From IMG/VR virus record IMGVR_UViG_2695420478_000010: a stretch of 20,577 bases of DNA. One strand, 5' to 3'. This stretch comes from a virus. Taxonomy: Duplodnaviria > Heunggongvirae > Uroviricota > Caudoviricetes. Below the pieces are notes generated by a model. The model saw only the letters and a program-made list of their open reading frames with translations, did no database searches and was not told where the DNA came from. Both the position numbers and the translations under genes were made by a program. Below are positions 1,571-9,346 of this stretch, in pieces (position 1 is the first letter of the stretch; every line of letters begins with the position of its first letter).

Positions 1571-3703
1571 TTAATCTTCATCATCAGGCTGGAACATCAG
1601 CACGTAAAAAACATGCTGCTTACCCCCAATCTTGCCCAGCGCCTTTTTTTTGTATCGGCGATCGCTTCCCTTCTCCAGCATTCCGGCAGCATCCAGGGCA
1701 CGCGCAAAATGCGCCGGATTAAATCCCTTCGCTATCTCACTCTCAAACACGTGCGGGAACGTGTAATAGCGCATCTCGTCATCTTCGTTGCGAATGCTCC
1801 CTTTTCTGTATCCGGCAAGCTCTTTAATCGGTAAATCACGCTCATCTGTATTGGGGTACGGAAGGTAGCGGCTAAACCCAAACGACGACAAAAACGCCTC
1901 AGCCTGTTCAACCATCTGTTTAAATTCCCTGTTACCCGTGCCGAACTCCTTCACCCAGGCATTAAAGTTATGCTGTATCGCGTCGCGGCATTCCTGCACG
2001 ACCCAGCCAGTTACATGACCGGAAAGCACAAGCGCGGCCTCCAGTATGGCGAAACGTTCACCCACGCGGTGGACCTGCTCGCCGTAACTCTCCGGTATCA
2101 GGTTGCGCCACCGTTCGCGGCATTCCCTTACCGTGTCCTTTGCCTCCTGCTGGTGGCCTGCCAGCCATTTAACCCACTCACGACCCGCCGCCCCGTGATT
2201 TGCTGTCCAGGCATCCTTTAACGCGTCAGCATGTTCCTTACCGTTGCTGTATTCGTGAAATTTCGTGGCTTTTTCCATCGGAACGTTAAGCAGTCGGACA
2301 AGCTGCCCCGCCTTAACTTTTATCCCCTCACTTTTGAGGAATGTCTCAACGTCCATTTCTCCGGTGCTGATTGCCACCGTTCGCCAGTGTTTGATCTCCC
2401 TGTTGCCGCCATCCTTCGCCCCCTGCAATTTCCCTGAACCGTTAAACAGCGTATAAGCAGACGTTGACACTTCCCGCGCATTTCCGGCCTGGCCTATCTC
2501 ATCCAGTGGTAAAAGCCCGTCATTATGGGCCTCGGCCTCATTGGCAATACCTAACGCCGTGCCGTACCAGGTCAGCCGCTGCGCGTCCGGCTCTCCCCAT
2601 AAACTTGATGCGATGTTCTGCGTGGTGGTCTTACCTGCCGATGACTGTTCGAAAAGATGCACCCCGAAGCCGTCAGCACCCACAAGGCCAATTAAAGGCG
2701 CTGCCAGTGACGTTGCCACACCCAGTATCATTGAGGCATTACCGCCAGCCAGCCGCGCCACGCTGTCGCGCCAGCCATCCGCCGTGCCCGCCACGGAATA
2801 ACCGTTAATCGCGGCGCTTTTTCCGGTAAACAGGATCGGTTTTTCAGATTCACCAATGATCGAACCGTCCGGCATGATGTACGCGCCAAAATGCCAGCCC
2901 GTTGTTGTGCTTAACTGCCATTCCTCATGGCTTCCGCTTAACTGCATCCAGTCCGCCAGGATTGCCCTGTATTTGCCGTTGGTTGTCACGTTCAGCCCGT
3001 GATCTTTAAGTAACCGCCAGCCGTCACGGTCGCCGATACCACCACACGGGATCGCCATTGTGATGACTTCATGGTTTGCGGTTTTTTTCCAGCGCATCAC
3101 GCGGTAATGCTCTTTACCGATCGTCCCCGTTCCCAGTAGTTCAAGCGGAGAACATAACCACGTCTCAGGCCGGATAATTTCGCCTGACTGCTTATCCACT
3201 TTGGGCGTTACCCAGAAAACACCATCGGCGCGACTTTCAACGCGTGGCTTTAATTCGTCATCGCTATGGCTTCCGGTATCTTTTTTCTTTACCGGAAACT
3301 CAATAACCAGACCATCAGAAAGATTCTGCCGCTCACGGGCCAGATATTCGCGCCAGTTCTCCACCTTCTGACCGTGCATACCCTCAGGATAAAAATTTGC
3401 ATCCTGTACACCAGCCGCCGCCAGCTTTTGACCAATCGCCTTGATCATTACTGGTGCAAGATGTCCGGCCCTGAATATGCGCACGGATTTTCTGCCTTCC
3501 GGCACAATTTGCAGCTTATCCAGTTCTGATAACTGCTGCTCCCCAAGCCACACAGGAGGCACATTATCGCCGGATGCGGGGCCGTCCTGCTCCTGCCACT
3601 GTTTTGCATGTGCCCACGCATCACTACCCGCGAAAATAATCACCTCTGTGTCTTTGTGTTTTATTCCGCGTGGCTGTTTTTTTACGTTCGGTGCCAGTTT
3701 CAT
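1571..3703 (-). CDS. P4-type primase/helicase (alpha-like replication protein, DUF927-type NTPase)
   Basis: 710-aa ORF with AGGGGT RBS; Walker A-like FEQSSAGKTTTQ and Walker B-like LLPLDEIG; start overlaps the upstream ORF stop (ATGA). Confidence 0.88.
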   Translation of the reverse strand: MKLAPNVKKQPRGIKHKDTEVIIFAGSDAWAHAKQWQEQDGPASGDNVPPVWLGEQQLSELDKLQIVPEGRKSVRIFRAGHLAPVMIKAIGQKLAAAGVQDANFYPEGMHGQKVENWREYLARERQNLSDGLVIEFPVKKKDTGSHSDDELKPRVESRADGVFWVTPKVDKQSGEIIRPETWLCSPLELLGTGTIGKEHYRVMRWKKTANHEVITMAIPCGGIGDRDGWRLLKDHGLNVTTNGKYRAILADWMQLSGSHEEWQLSTTTGWHFGAYIMPDGSIIGESEKPILFTGKSAAINGYSVAGTADGWRDSVARLAGGNASMILGVATSLAAPLIGLVGADGFGVHLFEQSSAGKTTTQNIASSLWGEPDAQRLTWYGTALGIANEAEAHNDGLLPLDEIGQAGNAREVSTSAYTLFNGSGKLQGAKDGGNREIKHWRTVAISTGEMDVETFLKSEGIKVKAGQLVRLLNVPMEKATKFHEYSNGKEHADALKDAWTANHGAAGREWVKWLAGHQQEAKDTVRECRERWRNLIPESYGEQVHRVGERFAILEAALVLSGHVTGWVVQECRDAIQHNFNAWVKEFGTGNREFKQMVEQAEAFLSSFGFSRYLPYPNTDERDLPIKELAGYRKGSIRNEDDEMRYYTFPHVFESEIAKGFNPAHFARALDAAGMLEKGSDRRYKKKALGKIGGKQHVFYVLMFQPDDED

Positions 3704-4613: not shown

Positions 4614-4937
4614 GGCACACCCCCTGACGAATACGGGCGGCAAATACAGCAACACAACCTGACGGGCAACGGCTACGCGCTTCGCGTTCCGTCCAGGCGG
4701 TTACGTGGATGATTTGAGATTCTCCGGCACTCAGTGCCAGAAAACGCCACACAAAGGCCGTTTGTGTGTGTACAAGGTGTGGTATATGATTTACAGCAAC
4801 CATAACGGCTCCTAGTTTACGTTGTTGGTTAGAAGCACTGCGAGTGGTAATGACACTTGCGGGGCTTTGCTTTTTTAAGTGCTCTTGTGTTAAGGTGACC
4901 ACCTAACAATAGAAAGGCTAATTCAATAGGTGACCAC

Positions 4938-5129
4938 TTGTCAACAATCAAACGCGATAAAAGCCCTAAAGGGGACGGGCAATCCCCACAATTCAGAATG
5001 CGAATTTCTCCAGAGCTAAAAGAGCAATTCGATAAAGAAGCACAGAGCGACGGCATAAGCCTAGCCAACTGGCTTAAAGAGTTGGGGCGTACTGAACTAA
5101 AGCGGCGCGGTATAGAACCCAAAGGATAA
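4938..5129 (+). CDS. Small ribbon-helix-helix-like protein, putative regulator (TTG start at 4938 or ATG at 4998)
   Basis: AGGTGA RBS 4 nt before the TTG; segment RMRISPELKEQFDKEAQSDGISLANWLKELGR fits an RHH (Arc/CopG-like) pattern; divergent from the primase operon. Confidence 0.4.
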   Translation: MSTIKRDKSPKGDGQSPQFRMRISPELKEQFDKEAQSDGISLANWLKELGRTELKRRGIEPKG

Positions 5130-5171
5130 AAACTATCAGCGCCGTGGTGTGAGGTATTACGGCGCATTGCT

Positions 5172-5360
5172 ATGCAGGACAACACAATGACCGATAAAGA
5201 ATTGACCAAAACATTATCACCGGCACGGAAAAGACGGCGCAGAAAGATAGAGCATGAATCAGAAAGATTCGCGCCATGTGCTTTTGCCCTTGAGCAATTC
5301 CTTAAAGAGTACAGGGAAAAGCGCTCATTGCAGGTATGGCAACGAACTGAACCAGACTGA
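5172..5360 (+). CDS. Possible small basic protein (62 aa), doubtful
   Basis: ORF following the RHH-like ORF; poor RBS; contains a KRRRRK basic patch. Confidence 0.25.
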   Translation: MQDNTMTDKELTKTLSPARKRRRRKIEHESERFAPCAFALEQFLKEYREKRSLQVWQRTEPD

Positions 5361-5424
5361 TAGCATTGCCCACCAGCCAACAACCTGGTATTCTGGATAT
5401 GCTCAAGTTTAGTGTTATGCCACT

Positions 5425-5453
5425 GGCGGCCCTCTGCGGTCGCCTTTGTTTTA
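5425..5453 (+). terminator. Candidate rho-independent terminator for the plus-strand small ORFs
   Basis: GGCGGCC / GGTCGCC stem (one G-U pair), 6-nt loop, then TTTGTTTTA. Confidence 0.35.
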
Positions 5454-5471
5454 TGTGTCATATGCCCCCCT

Positions 5472-5696
5472 TTACGCTGCCTTGCCTGAATTAATACGAT
5501 CCCGGCTTTTAACCCATTCCATAACCTCGGAAAGCAGCCAACCTACTGAACGACCACCCAGATTACGGCGTGACGGGAAATTCCCTTTTTTCTCCAGTTC
5601 GTAGCGTGTAGTGCGGCACACTCCTGTTAACTTACGGCATTCATCCTCACGGATTACGCGATCTGATAGTGATTGAAATTGTGTATTTTGATTCAT
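5472..5696 (-). CDS. alpA: AlpA-family phage transcriptional regulator / excisionase-like HTH protein
   Basis: 74-aa ORF; central region LTGVCRTTRYELEKKGNFP and C-terminal SVGWLLSEVMEWV match the AlpA/Vis (HTH_17) pattern. Confidence 0.7.
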   Translation of the reverse strand: MNQNTQFQSLSDRVIREDECRKLTGVCRTTRYELEKKGNFPSRRNLGGRSVGWLLSEVMEWVKSRDRINSGKAA

Positions 5697-5731
5697 AAAA
5701 AAACGTCCTCGAACGTTGCCGAACGAGGACG
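5697..5731 (-). terminator. Stem-loop plus T-run on the minus strand, directly abutting the alpA start codon
   Basis: CGTCCTCG (5704-5711) pairs with CGAGGACG (5724-5731), 12-nt loop, followed on the minus strand by TTTTTT and then the alpA ATG. Confidence 0.5.
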
Positions 5732-5787
5732 ATTCTAGGCGGTAGTAAAACGCCGTTTGTGTGATATCACACTACCAGCACGTGATA

Positions 5788-6561
5788 TCACTTTTTACGT
5801 TTTTGTTGAGATTCACGCCCCAAATACTTTTGCCATGTCTGCCAATGTGTTTTTGGAAATTCTATCCCTCTGGATGCAGCTATAGAATCAATTAAATCTG
5901 CTATTTTAGGTAATGATTCCGTGTCCAGGTCTACATCACCCATTTCTGGAATAAGTTTAATTAAAGAGTAAATAACCTCATTCCTTTTTGACGATGCTTT
6001 TGGGCTATCTTCTGTTATCTTCGGGAAGTCTCCCGTATTTTTTATATTATCTAAATCACTAGCCATCACACACAAATAGTTAACATCAAATTCATAACCA
6101 CCCTTACAAAAAACATACATGAGATTATCATCACCATACTTATTCGTAAGATGAGAACATTTTATATATTGTCTCATGCTAAATTCGACATCAGCAAAAA
6201 CATATGCCGGAGTATAATAAAACCCTGATAAGCTGCTAACATAATAACATTTGATAGAATTCCCTACAGGACCAATAATGGCACTATCTAAAAATTCAGT
6301 GTCACCAGTTAAACCAACTGTAAAATTACTTCCAAAAACAGCAGATTCATCATTGAAAGGATATTTTATTAATTCTTCCTCATTACAACCATTGATAAAA
6401 TGACATAATGAAAAATTGAATTTTTTAGCATCAATTTTTGGTATATATACAGAAATATTAAGAGCACCTATATATGCGTAATGATAAAGATCTTTTATTG
6501 CACAGCCTAACTTTTCTGCCGCTTCAGGTAACGGATAATAGAGTCTTTTAGGTAATTTCAT
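5788..6561 (-). CDS. Hypothetical protein (257 aa), AT-rich accessory gene translationally coupled to the integrase
   Basis: Long uninterrupted ORF in visibly AT-rich DNA; GAAGGTGG RBS inside the integrase 3' end; ATG overlaps the integrase TGA (ATGA). No motif I can recognise. Confidence 0.7.
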   Translation of the reverse strand: MKLPKRLYYPLPEAAEKLGCAIKDLYHYAYIGALNISVYIPKIDAKKFNFSLCHFINGCNEEELIKYPFNDESAVFGSNFTVGLTGDTEFLDSAIIGPVGNSIKCYYVSSLSGFYYTPAYVFADVEFSMRQYIKCSHLTNKYGDDNLMYVFCKGGYEFDVNYLCVMASDLDNIKNTGDFPKITEDSPKASSKRNEVIYSLIKLIPEMGDVDLDTESLPKIADLIDSIAASRGIEFPKTHWQTWQKYLGRESQQKRKK

Positions 6562-7778
6562 TTGGCCACCTTCAGCATAACAATATTTTCATGATTTCCA
6601 GCCAGCACATCGAGGCGCTCAACCCACAGATTCAGAGCGTCCCGCTTCGCCTGTAAATAGCGTGAATGGTTATAGGTTTTTTGCTGACCGGGCATCTGAT
6701 GCGCTGTGATGTGCTCCACGATATGCGGATCGACACCTAAATCGTTCAGCATCGTTGTAAACGTGTGGCGAAAGTCATGCAGTGACCAATGTTCCTGGTT
6801 AAGCCGCTTATGCGCATTTCGCCCATATTGCGCTACCGTGGTATCTTTTTTCAGTTCTCCGAGCAATAACCCTGTATGCCGGTTCTGATCCACCAGCTTC
6901 TGAATGAACGGCAAAATGCCATCGGGGATTGGCCTGAATATCGTTACCTTCGTTTTGCTGTGCTCTTTTGGCACTGTCCACAACATTTCTTTCAGATCCC
7001 ATTCTTTGATCTCTGAAAGTCTGACCTCTGCAGTTCTGCACCCGAACACAATCAGCAAGCGCATTAACGCGCTGTAGTAAGGCGCGAACACATCACCATC
7101 AATAGCGCGTAAAATTTCCTTTAATTCGCTGTTACTGTGCACCCTCTCGCGAATTTCTGCTCTCTTACCCACATCGCTGACGATCAAATCGTCCAGGGCA
7201 TTACTGAACGCGTAGCGTCTCCTGCGGCAGAACTTTAGCGCCTGTTTGCAGGTTTGCATGACGTGCCCCGCTGCTACTGGTGCTTTTTTTCGTACACGGT
7301 CAAAACATGCGATCCACTGCCTTGTGTCGCATTTATCAAGAGGAATTGCCCCTATATGGCAAATGATGTGCTTATCCATACGTTGCACCAGCTTTATGTA
7401 GTCTTTGCGGTTATCCTTCGCATATTCCTCCAGCCAGTAGTTAATCGCCTCCTTCACCGTAACGGGTTTTAGCGCTTCCTGTACTGTGGCGCACAACTCA
7501 TAACGGGGGTTTTTACCCTCAGCCAGCCATGCCCGGCACTGTGCGCGTTTTTCCCTTGCAGCTTTCAGCGACAATTCAGGGTAAGCCCCCAGCTTTAACC
7601 GCTCTGCGGCAACCTCACGGCCTCCCGTTCGGTACCGGAAATACCAGGTTAATTTTCCGCCTTTTGAGTGTTTAATCTCCAGCCCGCCCCCGTCGGAGTA
7701 AAAACGCTCTTTTTCTGCCTGGACAGCCGCCAATTTTTTTAATGTCGAATCGCTCAGTTTGTTTAGTGCTTTTCCCAC
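6558..7778 (-). CDS. int: Tyrosine site-specific integrase, P4-like family (GTG start)
   Basis: 406-aa ORF with AAGAGGA RBS; N-terminal arm-binding-type region (GGGLEIKHSKGGKLTWYFRYR); C-terminal catalytic region LHDFRHTF ... HSRY. Confidence 0.92.
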   Translation of the reverse strand: MGKALNKLSDSTLKKLAAVQAEKERFYSDGGGLEIKHSKGGKLTWYFRYRTGGREVAAERLKLGAYPELSLKAAREKRAQCRAWLAEGKNPRYELCATVQEALKPVTVKEAINYWLEEYAKDNRKDYIKLVQRMDKHIICHIGAIPLDKCDTRQWIACFDRVRKKAPVAAGHVMQTCKQALKFCRRRRYAFSNALDDLIVSDVGKRAEIRERVHSNSELKEILRAIDGDVFAPYYSALMRLLIVFGCRTAEVRLSEIKEWDLKEMLWTVPKEHSKTKVTIFRPIPDGILPFIQKLVDQNRHTGLLLGELKKDTTVAQYGRNAHKRLNQEHWSLHDFRHTFTTMLNDLGVDPHIVEHITAHQMPGQQKTYNHSRYLQAKRDALNLWVERLDVLAGNHENIVMLKVAK

Positions 7779-7966
7779 TATCAGATCCTCTTTTCAGTCC
7801 TCCAGCCCCAAAAAACTGACCACACAACTGACCACACATTTCGTTGAAGCTCTACGAACAACGACGAACAATAACAAACAAGAAAACGCAACATTCCATT
7901 TAATATCAAATATATATCCAAACAACTACGAACAACCCCGAACCACAAAAAACACTAAATGAGAAA
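7779..7966. repeat. Element end region with direct repeats, candidate integrase arm-type sites (attR side)
   Basis: Perfect tandem AACTGACCACAC x2 (7814-7837); CTACGAACAAC at 7852-7862 and 7926-7936; extra ACGAACA at 7864-7870. Confidence 0.45.
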
Positions 7967-8018
7967 ATACGGGTATTTCTCAGCCTTCACGCAGAAGGGC
8001 ACCCCGAGTCGTTTGGTT
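7967..8018 (-). ncRNA. Truncated thiM TPP riboswitch aptamer (promoter-proximal arm only), interrupted by the element
   Basis: Minus strand reads AACCAAACGACTCGGGGTGCCCTTCTGCGTGAAGGCTGAGAAATACCCGTAT, matching the E. coli thiM aptamer as I recall it; the expected continuation CACCTGATCTGGATAATGCCAGCG is replaced by element sequence. Confidence 0.8.
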
Positions 8019-8041
8019 GCGATGATAAATCGCAGAGGAGG

Positions 8042-8070
8042 ATGGTAATGTCCAGCGCACCCGTTGTAAA
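8042..8070 (-). promoter_or_regulatory. Candidate thiM promoter (-35 TTTACA, 17-bp spacer, -10 TACCAT)
   Basis: Hexamers read on the minus strand just upstream of the riboswitch fragment; assigned by eye only. Confidence 0.3.
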
Positions 8071-8107
8071 CGAGGAAAAACGGCAGTTTTACAATCGCGT
8101 TAATAAA

Positions 8108-8380
8108 TTATTTGATATATGAATCCAGCACCTTCAGAACGACATCCAGATCTTCTTCACGTTTTAGCTCATCCCCCTGGTGAACGATGTGTTCCGTCAG
8201 ATGACCTTTAATCACTTCCCGCATCAGACCGTTTACCGCGCCACGGATAGCAGCAATCTGTTGTAAAACTGCAGCGCATTCGTGCGGCTCGTCGAGCATT
8301 TTCTTGAGCGCCACGACCTGGCCCTGAATCTTACTGGCACGCGCTTTCAGTTTCTGTTTATCACGGATTGTATGAGACAT
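8108..8380 (-). CDS. rcnR: RcnR, Ni/Co-responsive transcriptional repressor (CsoR/RcnR family)
   Basis: 90-aa ORF whose sequence I recognise as E. coli RcnR; divergent from rcnA. Confidence 0.92.
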
Positions 8381-8428
8381 GGCAACACCTGGTTAACAAG
8401 AATATGAAAAATCATAGCACTATTAATC

Positions 8429-8463
8429 TACTGGGGGGTAGTATCAGGTACTGGGGGGGAGTA
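8429..8463. promoter_or_regulatory. RcnR operator: two TACT-G(6-7)-AGTA sites in the rcnR-rcnA intergenic region
   Basis: TACTGGGGGGTAGTA (8429-8443) and TACTGGGGGGGAGTA (8449-8463), matching the published RcnR recognition pattern. Confidence 0.8.
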
Positions 8464-8500
8464 GAATCAGATTGCCGAATTAATACTAAGAATTATTATC

Positions 8501-9346
8501 ATGACCGAATTTACAACTCTTCTTCAGCAAGGAAACGCCTGGTTCTTCATCCCCAGCGCCATCTTACTTGGTGCGCTTCATGGCCTGGAACCAGGGCACT
8601 CAAAAACGATGATGGCGGCGTTTATCATCGCCATCAAAGGCACCATTAAACAAGCGGTGATGCTCGGACTGGCAGCAACTATTTCGCATACCGCAGTGGT
8701 CTGGTTAATTGCCTTTGGCGGGATGGTGATCAGCAAGCGCTTTACTGCTCAATCAGCAGAACCGTGGCTCCAGCTGATTTCCGCAGTGATCATTATTGGC
8801 ACCGCGTTCTGGATGTTCTGGCGTACCTGGCGCGGCGAACGCAACTGGCTGGAGAATATGCACGAGTATGATTATGAGCATCATCACCATCATCACGATC
8901 ACGAACATCATCAAGACCACGAACATCACCACGACCATGGACATCATCACCATCACGAACATGGCGAGTATCAGGATGCCCATGCACGAGCCCATGCCAA
9001 TGACATTAAACGACGCTTTGATGGTAGAGAGGTCACCAACTGGCAAATTTTGTTATTTGGCTTAACCGGTGGCCTTATCCCCTGCCTGGCAGCAATTACC
9101 GTGCTATTGATATGCATTCAGTTGAAAGCCCTGACACTGGGCGCAACACTGGTCGTCAGTTTCAGCATTGGCCTGGCGTTTACGCTTGTCACCGTAGGCG
9201 TTGGCGCAGCAATCAGCGTTCAGCAGGTCGCAAAACGCTGGAGCGGATTTAACACTCTCGCTAAACGCGCCCCCTATTTTTCCAGTCTGTTGATTGGCTT
9301 AGTCGGTGTGTATATGGGCGTACATGGCTTCATGGGCATAATGTGA
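8501..9346 (+). CDS. rcnA: RcnA nickel/cobalt efflux protein with histidine-rich loop
   Basis: 281-aa membrane protein; loop HEYDYEHHHHHHDHEHHQDHEHHHDHGHHHHHEH encoded at about 8870-8965. Confidence 0.93.
   Translation: MTEFTTLLQQGNAWFFIPSAILLGALHGLEPGHSKTMMAAFIIAIKGTIKQAVMLGLAATISHTAVVWLIAFGGMVISKRFTAQSAEPWLQLISAVIIIGTAFWMFWRTWRGERNWLENMHEYDYEHHHHHHDHEHHQDHEHHHDHGHHHHHEHGEYQDAHARAHANDIKRRFDGREVTNWQILLFGLTGGLIPCLAAITVLLICIQLKALTLGATLVVSFSIGLAFTLVTVGVGAAISVQQVAKRWSGFNTLAKRAPYFSSLLIGLVGVYMGVHGFMGIM

Follow-up and report, generated by a model that had tools for sequence, protein, structure and literature searches.

How a helper phage switches on alpA, the master switch of the Gram-negative phage-inducible chromosomal islands (PICIs), has been an open question since 2018 (PMC6092414). 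AlpA is the helper-induced master activator of these islands, and the helper-encoded inducer was not identified (PMC6092414); AlpA is also known to act at its own promoter, with reporter data from other PICIs indicating activation (PMC6092414, PMC11773190). Gram-negative phage-inducible islands carry virulence and defence genes between enterobacteria. The present study approached the question at positions 5697-5791 of the virus record IMGVR_UViG_2695420478_000010 (IMG/VR; Caudoviricetes), a stretch of 20,577 nucleotides referred to below as the window, in which a tyrosine integrase gene (int), a gene encoding a protein of 257 amino acids (aa), and alpA follow one another on the minus strand. 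An earlier note on the letters of the window had described two perfect palindromes and a hairpin directly upstream of alpA, with a T-run entering the start codon and no ribosome binding site, had read them as an operator pair plus a terminator or attenuator controlling read-through from int, and had proposed looking for conservation in related elements. We propose, with moderate confidence, that this region is the control region of alpA, in which an operator pair, a hairpin that would hide the Shine-Dalgarno (SD) sequence, and a pair of probable AlpA boxes may together provide a regulator-gated promoter, insulation from int read-through, and AlpA feedback.

The palindrome pair and the 257-aa protein family

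Both palindromes are present in the sequence as described. The proximal site, O1, has the core GTGATATCAC (5761-5770) within an extended palindrome, GTGTGATATCACAC (5759-5772), and starts 74 nt before the alpA ATG; the distal site, O2, is a second copy of GTGATATCAC (5782-5791) that starts 95 nt before the ATG, lies 21 bp from O1 measured start to start, and includes the TGA stop codon (5790-5788, minus strand) of the 257-aa gene. Along the minus strand the order of elements is GTGATATCAC, N11, GTGTGATATCACAC, N21, TAGAAT, CGTCCTCG, a 12-nt loop, CGAGGACG, T7, and ATG. The exact 10-mer GTGATATCAC has two copies in the 20,577 bases against 0.01 expected, a count reached in none of 100 dinucleotide-preserving shuffles, and allowing up to one mismatch recovered the same two copies only (0.49 expected).

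The gene that ends in O2 encodes a protein for which no match was found in Pfam, PHROGs, PADLOC, or NCBIfam. Its family comprised 19 clusters in a word-indexed search and 390 representatives at 50% identity in an exhaustive profile search; a protein-guided scan of species-representative genomes found nothing. The protein is modular, consisting of an N-terminal winged helix-turn-helix (wHTH) of the excisionase/MerR-like type, a middle region rich in beta structure and variable both in sequence and in length, and a helical, conserved domain at the C-terminus. Because alleles that are only ~40% identical overall share C-terminal domains (75 residues) that are 94-100% conserved, the middle domain appears to have been exchanged on a constant chassis of C-terminus, operator, and alpA. 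The C-terminal domains fall into two classes, A, which ends in ...THxQTWxKYLGR and includes the protein of the window, and B, which ends in ...PPVSGxTLAxWL..VELDYVEIS..KK. In sister islands (L003 3351-4205, minus strand), the slot between int and alpA is filled by a DUF6387 gene, with a differing upstream leader and the same hairpin, and the slot behaves as an exchangeable module.

Conservation of the palindromes was assessed in ~20 diverged relatives gathered by three independent routes: from viral contigs with the exact palindrome pair, with the 257-aa protein, and with alpA. The 15 class-A loci, which come from E. coli, Klebsiella, Providencia, Pantoea, and metagenomes and encode proteins with identities down to ~30%, have two GTGWWWWCAC sites starting -92 to -95 and -72 to -74 from the alpA ATG, and the site pair is present in every locus encoding a 257-aa relative with the class-A C-terminal domain. 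Spacer, flanks, and coding sequence vary among these loci, and the sites and their geometry are kept. Dyad symmetry is also kept in the variants, which include changes in the A/T core and the replacement of GTGATATCAC by GTGAATTCAC in Klebsiella loci. Class-B loci, a small sample of five, are without GTGATATCAC and have GGRWWWWYCC palindromes at -93 to -94 and -72 to -73 from the alpA ATG. The start-to-start spacing is 21-22 bp in all loci compared. Elements with a near-identical alpA but no family gene (L003, L039, and the L004 type) have neither site, whether the slot between int and alpA is filled by a DUF6387 gene, filled by some other gene, or empty.

Retention of the sites, their phasing, and their distance from the ATG while the proteins diverge to ~30% identity strongly supports what the earlier note had suggested, namely that the palindromes are an operator pair, and would suit a dimeric regulator with its sites two helical turns apart. 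Judged from the loci compared, the palindromes travel with the upstream 257-aa gene, a tie that the earlier note had overlooked, and not with AlpA or with the ribbon-helix-helix (RHH)-like gene downstream of alpA. AlpA was rejected as their reader because elements with near-identical alpA have no sites, and very different AlpA proteins occur with palindromes. The two C-terminal classes partition the operators, GTGWWWWCAC going with class A (15 loci) and GGRWWWWYCC, at matching coordinates, with class B (5 loci). Since the operator follows the C-terminal class while the N-terminal wHTH stays constant, the comparison points to the C-terminal domain as the operator reader, and the 257-aa protein is the most likely candidate to read O1 and O2.

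Several observations weigh against this assignment. The proximal class-B site is degenerate in 3 of the 5 loci, and both class-B sites fall within the last codons of the gene, where they encode a conserved peptide tail. The loci share ancestry, hence the counts are not independent events. The same palindrome pairs also occur in unrelated phages and genomes beside other regulators, and another protein could read O1 and O2. Scans of phage and genome collections for palindrome pairs returned coding repeats, a Myxococcales repeat, arrays upstream of ParA genes, and RHH-linked arrays, with no family homologue near those unrelated palindrome loci, which show only a common operator design.

Some of these unrelated loci can be described individually. 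Phage contigs of ~55 kb (L072 4490-4600; related L074-L140) have arrays of 6-7 copies of TGATATCA between a strong promoter-like site, TTGACA-17 nt-TATAGT, and an RHH gene, an unrelated system with the same palindrome. In Trabulsiella guamensis (L158 2869-2899) and in L009 (2165-2195), a GGTGATATCACC pair 21 bp apart is followed by a T-run outside any satellite context, and resembles an intrinsic terminator made by pairing of the two copies. One Myxococcales metagenome-assembled genome (L148, L149, L170, L179, L181, L182, L191, L197, L202) contains numerous copies of one short repeat element built around TCAGGTGATATCACCTGA pairs, which may represent a miniature mobile element or a dispersed operator.

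The leader hairpin and its GTTCG boxes

Folding confirmed the second feature of the earlier description, a GC-rich hairpin with a T-run into the alpA start. The RNA hairpin (CGUCCUCG, a 12-nt loop, and CGAGGACG) spans 5704-5731 on the minus (alpA-sense) strand, and its arms at 5704-5711 and 5724-5731 (CGTCCTCG/CGAGGACG) form an 8-bp stem with 6 G-C pairs; in the predicted fold, the 12-nt loop itself contains 2 apical pairs and a GCAA tetraloop. Alone, the hairpin folds at -18.6 kcal/mol (-10 to -18.6 kcal/mol across the hairpins compared), and the 121-nt leader folds at -40.2 kcal/mol (z = -4.46), with none of 200 shuffles as stable. A U7 tract (5697-5703, minus strand) separates the hairpin from the alpA ATG (5696-5694).

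Covariation was examined in 14 distinct, diverse leaders aligned on their 12-nt loops. Paired bases filled 96.1% of the cells and 7 of the 11 pairs had changed on both sides, a level that none of 500 shuffles attained; when the partners were slid by 1-3 columns as a control, only 30-53% of the cells were paired. A structure in the sense transcript is favoured over a DNA palindrome because 15 cells on the alpA-sense strand are G-U or U-G and a single C-A mismatch was found. An Rfam search gave only chance-level matches below the gathering scores, and no family.

The hairpin contains the ribosome binding site that the earlier note had reported as missing. GAGGA (5706-5710, minus strand), the SD sequence of alpA, is part of the 3' arm and is separated from the ATG by 9 nt. 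All 14 hairpins have an SD-like run (GAGG, AGGAG, AGGUGGA, or AAGGG) in this arm, at a distance of 7-12 nt from the AUG. Predicted SD sequestration is thus the feature common to all lineages aligned. The terminator half of the earlier reading stands in part, in that the RNA hairpin is conserved and is followed here by U7; as a general property it fails, the U-tract being absent from about half of the relatives. It is also present in L003, L008, L015, L017, and L039, and absent in L012, L013, L014, L016, L019, L021, and L025. As measured against intrinsic terminators, the GC-rich stem and the directly following U-tract were found, and the short loop of 3-8 nt and a conserved U-tract were not; a simple terminator scan with a loop limit of 8 nt did not call the hairpin because its 12-nt loop exceeds that limit. 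Termination is probably lineage-specific, since about half of the homologous leaders keep the hairpin without a U-tract.

The loop and the inner ends of the stem also hold a DNA motif, a second role of the hairpin that had been overlooked. On the plus strand, 5710-5724 is a box pair of the form CGAAC-N5-CGAAC (GTTCG on the alpA-sense strand), with the boxes 10 bp apart. With up to one mismatch, this motif has 6 matches in the window against 0.98 expected, and none of 100 shuffles reached 6. Besides the leader pair, four of the remaining five matches make up two triads of CGAAC-type boxes with 10-bp phasing upstream of int, at 7855-7879 (boxes at 7855, 7865, and 7875) and 7919-7943 (7919, 7929, and 7939), both on the plus strand; the fifth, inside the primase gene (2379-2393, minus strand), is probably a chance match. 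The triads adjoin two 12-bp direct repeats (AACTGACCACAC, twice; 7814-7837) that resemble integrase arm sites.

Recombination directionality factors (RDFs) bind direct repeats one helical turn apart, at attachment (att) sites and at promoters (PMC7498355), and TorI, the AlpA-like RDF of KplE1, binds GTTCG, GATCG, and GTCCG sites grouped in twos and threes upstream of intS, whose promoter it represses (PMC2951348). The window likewise has direct repeats about one helical turn apart in the att arm beside int, with a box that matches that of TorI, and AlpA is approximately 31% identical to TorI over 62 residues. On the strength of the RDF direct-repeat rule and the TorI GTTCG sites upstream of intS, the GTTCG boxes are probably AlpA (excisionase-type) sites, and the leader pair would be autoregulatory. 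Together, the boxes and the AACTGACCACAC repeats look like RDF and integrase arm sites that overlap the promoter region of int in the manner of KplE1 attL.

The layout of two box blocks before int plus one pair near alpA recurs in nine loci. The leader pair lies 26-29 nt before the alpA ATG in 8 hairpin-type loci and 140 nt upstream in the classical L004, and in Klebsiella elements the box sequence co-varies, with GTTCA boxes in the att arm as well as in the alpA leader. Within the hairpin, the pair points in opposite directions in different lineages (the window versus the L008, L016, and L021 leaders) and the stem is kept; because the pair survives this flip in orientation, it is read as a duplex DNA site rather than an RNA loop motif. 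It appears that the stem-loop as a unit became inverted in the course of evolution. In classical PICIs an identical 15-mer, CGAACCTTAGCGAAC, lies outside any hairpin ~140 nt upstream of the alpA ATG and 23 nt before a -10-like TTTAAT; this classical copy (L004 3320-3400, minus strand; L040-L071) may be the site of AlpA self-activation. For AlpA-family proteins in these islands, GTTCG at 10-bp phasing is suggested as a recognition motif. The conservation in related elements that the earlier note had proposed as a check was found separately for the operator pair, the hairpin, and the GTTCG pair.

Proposed control of alpA and competing explanations

Between O1 and the hairpin lies TAGAAT (5732-5737, minus strand), a candidate -10-like hexamer of uncertain assignment that starts 23 nt past O1 and runs directly up to the 5' arm. 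Most relatives have an nAnAAT hexamer at this position, and three have TTAAAT. The distance from O1 to TAGAAT is the same 23 nt that separates the probable AlpA box pair from TTTAAT in classical islands, and O1 holds the position that the boxes classically have.

Under the control scheme proposed at the outset, int and the 257-aa gene would be co-transcribed in the quiescent island, and their transcripts would form the hairpin. In this island such transcripts would end at U7, and any RNA reading through would have its SD paired and yield no AlpA, such that the hairpin would keep alpA silent during int expression. Productive transcription would come from a weak promoter without a -35 element (TAGAAT), with O1 at around -45 to -36, the -35/activator position, and O2 upstream of O1 by another two turns. 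RNA initiated at this promoter would have its 5' end close to where the 5' arm ends and the loop starts. Having no 5' arm, such RNA could not form the hairpin, its SD would be free, and it would be translatable. A dimeric regulator bound to the operators, most likely the 257-aa protein, would gate the promoter, and AlpA would act in excision through the att-arm boxes and in feedback through those of the leader.

The promoter is the part of this scheme against which most can be said. The hexamer is without the -11 A in three lineages and is unrecognisable in L019 and L203, and it overlaps extensions of the stem, of which it may be kept merely as a part. A promoter scan called no sigma-70 promoter in the region and found no -35 match, and a search upstream of and within the palindromes, by scan and by eye, found no convincing hexamer pair. 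The position of the probable AlpA boxes just downstream of the candidate promoter would suggest repression, as opposed to the positive autoregulation published for other PICIs.

The lack of a predicted sigma-70 promoter upstream of alpA would be expected if alpA were instead the third gene of the int operon with no promoter of its own, the hairpin a regulated terminator or attenuator, the palindrome-binding protein a roadblock or modulator, and helper antitermination the means of release. This arrangement, which builds on the read-through idea of the earlier note and is the main rival, but which we regard as unlikely, would also accommodate the resemblance of the hairpin and U7 to an intrinsic terminator, the overlap of the int and 257-aa genes in the same direction as alpA, and the fact that the known helpers are lambdoid, antiterminator-encoding phages. 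However, the U-tract is missing in about half of the leaders although hairpin and site geometry are kept, and the SD would still be paired in such RNA; for these two reasons we place it below a regulator-gated promoter. In addition, upstream promoter activity has been measured for alpA of other PICIs, and neither a nut- or put-like element nor an Rfam family was found. A separate doubt concerns the identity of the reader. Tandem short 10-bp palindromes are typical of RHH operators, TGATATCA arrays adjoin RHH genes in unrelated phages, and helper phages are known to switch alpA on, any of which would suit an alternative in which the RHH-like protein (4938-5129, plus strand), a helper regulator, or a host factor reads the palindromes and the 257-aa gene is unrelated cargo. 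We give this alternative a slimmer chance still, as palindromes are seen in front of alpA only where the family gene is present and differ between its two C-terminal classes, and no family homologue lies near the phage arrays. The RHH-like YlcI/YnfO protein in particular was rejected for its poor correlation with the sites, its homologues being present in palindrome-free elements and undetected in several elements with palindromes, and its segment having been swapped between 99.5-99.9% identical islands with the operators unchanged. Among host factors, sites for CRP (TGTGA-N6-TCACA), SlmA (GTGAGTACTCAC), and sigma-54 in a conserved coding end were set aside in an informal comparison with their consensuses, as spacing or key bases did not fit.

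The palindromes could in principle act in RNA. Paired with each other, the two copies would make a 10-bp stem-loop that ends the int-257 mRNA and affects its stability or processing. The minimum-free-energy fold does pair both copies, and the similar pairs followed by T-runs in Trabulsiella L158 and in L009 are terminator-like. In the Klebsiella loci, however, the two sites no longer pair with one another and the distal site is still a perfect palindrome by itself, variants on which an RNA role was rejected; no U-tract follows the pair, and a spacing of 21-22 bp at a constant distance from the ATG suits the helical phasing of DNA. We consider this explanation highly improbable.

With the 257-aa protein as the candidate reader of O1 and O2, a further possibility, which we put forward tentatively and would not yet bet on, is that proteins of this type are the satellite's own helper-phage sensors, whose constant ends would dock on the operators and whose swappable middle would recognise a helper product. 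If so, the middle domain would decide which phages induce the island, with the protein acting as repressor or activator, and the family would be a Gram-negative counterpart of Stl of the Staphylococcus aureus pathogenicity islands (SaPIs) that explains helper switching of alpA for this PICI group.

The island and the closest known systems

The window is E. coli chromosome, with rcnR and rcnA at 8108-9346 and the island to their left. The island genes (int, the 257-aa open reading frame (ORF), alpA, small ORFs, a DUF4222 gene, and a DUF927 primase gene) are all on the minus strand. The tyrosine integrase gene (6558-7778), with a P4-type arm-binding domain (PF13356 and PF00589), is the first gene of the int-257 unit, and its stop codon is overlapped by the ATG of the 257-aa gene (5788-6561); alpA (5472-5696) encodes a 74-aa AlpA-family winged-helix regulator/excisionase (PF05930, E = 3.4e-16), and the primase gene, recognised by its domain match, lies at 1571-3703. 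This is the PICI gene order, with int at one end followed by a co-directional alpA and then by the primase/replicase gene. For other islands, the literature documents that helper phages induce alpA and bring about island transfer. The copy of the island in E. coli 10671 (L001) is 99.5-99.9% identical to it on either side of one replaced segment and, beyond the position of the window's left edge, carries genes for SSB, PerC, major capsid protein, prohead protease, portal, and head closure. The island of the window runs past the left end, and its capsid module is known via the L001 copy, whose near part was read; because that copy continues into capsid genes at such identity, the island appears to be a capsid-forming PICI-type phage satellite of the type of Alqurainy et al.

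The 141-bp region was found in 66 of 5,426 complete E. coli genomes, including O157:H7, O145:H28, O103:H2, and O121 strains, and alpA was present in 402 genomes, behind several differing upstream regions. We do not claim that the prototype island EcCIEDL933 carries exactly this region, as EDL933 and Sakai were absent from the best 60 of the 66 matching genomes. The island adjoins rcnR (spacer 7779-8107), an intergenic, non-tRNA integration site, and related islands lie near cspD or acrR; a tRNA gene scan of the window found none. The segment replaced between this island and the E. coli 10671 copy, ~480 bp at 4648-5131, includes the RHH-like (YlcI/YnfO-type) gene, and behaves as a small swap-prone module downstream of alpA. 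A plus-strand terminator-like hairpin with a trailing T-run (GGCGGCCCTCTGCGGTCGCC; 5425-5444) immediately precedes the 3' end of alpA and would halt convergent transcripts of the RHH-like gene ahead of antisense entry into alpA. A mechanically called ORF of 210 aa (4829-5461, minus strand) overlaps the RHH-like gene on the opposite strand, and in the RefSeq record of a near-identical island much of its counterpart is annotated as an incomplete Icd-like pseudogene.

The analysis defines cis elements before alpA for one widespread island group, including capsid-forming members in Shiga-toxin-producing E. coli lineages, and names a concrete candidate regulator whose variable domain could set helper specificity. 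Its importance would rise if the 257-aa protein proves to be a helper-phage sensor.

Each of the parts has a precedent. In the fold-back control of IS10/Tn10, incoming transcripts pair their ribosome binding site, and the element's own transcripts start downstream of this structure and are translatable. The locus studied here shares an SD paired in a conserved stem; it differs in that the internal start is inferred and that the hairpin may also terminate transcription and encodes a probable protein-binding motif. In P4 PLL-vis, as is proposed here, a gene of the excisionase family comes first after a promoter that needs a dyad-symmetric activator site, and the excisionase feeds back and binds att. 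The P4 activator site, TGT-N12-ACA, is unlike the palindromes of this locus and is read by helper Ogr or P4 Delta; we know of no gene between int and vis in P4 that encodes the reader, and of no SD-burying hairpin there. P4 Vis acts on int (PMC2951348).

In the KplE1 attL/PintS system of TorI and IntS, GTTCG-type boxes likewise stand in two blocks upstream of int and adjoin integrase arm repeats; their reader, an AlpA-like winged-helix RDF, is a transcriptional regulator as well. TorI is, however, not known to have a leader box pair, and the system has no operator pair and no modular regulator. The classical PICIs EcCICFT073 and EcCIMP1 share the position of alpA after int, a helper-induced switch, and action of AlpA on its own upstream region (PMC6092414, PMC11773190), together with the CGAAC-N5-CGAAC box pair. 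Their int-alpA spacer, in contrast, is ~420 nt long and without an intervening gene, palindromes, or an SD hairpin, and has the box pair ~140 nt upstream of the ATG, whereas here the boxes lie in the leader hairpin and the operators hold the corresponding position. SaPI Stl resembles the 257-aa protein, a predicted DNA-binding protein, in being satellite-encoded beside int, with allele-specific variable parts, at a switch flipped by the helper; the 257-aa protein has a wHTH and a hypervariable middle domain, which may or may not recognise a partner. Stl is, however, divergent from the genes it represses and a proven repressor relieved by helper proteins, whereas the 257-aa gene is co-directional with alpA and coupled to int.

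Precedents for the individual parts are thus found in excisionase boxes (TorI, Apl, Cox, and Vis), IS10 insulation, P4 PLL-vis, and SaPI Stl. What is new is that these parts are combined within a single 95-bp region, that a DNA site is nested in an RNA hairpin, and that the region is linked to a modular, uncharacterised family of proteins in which the C-terminal class matches the operator.

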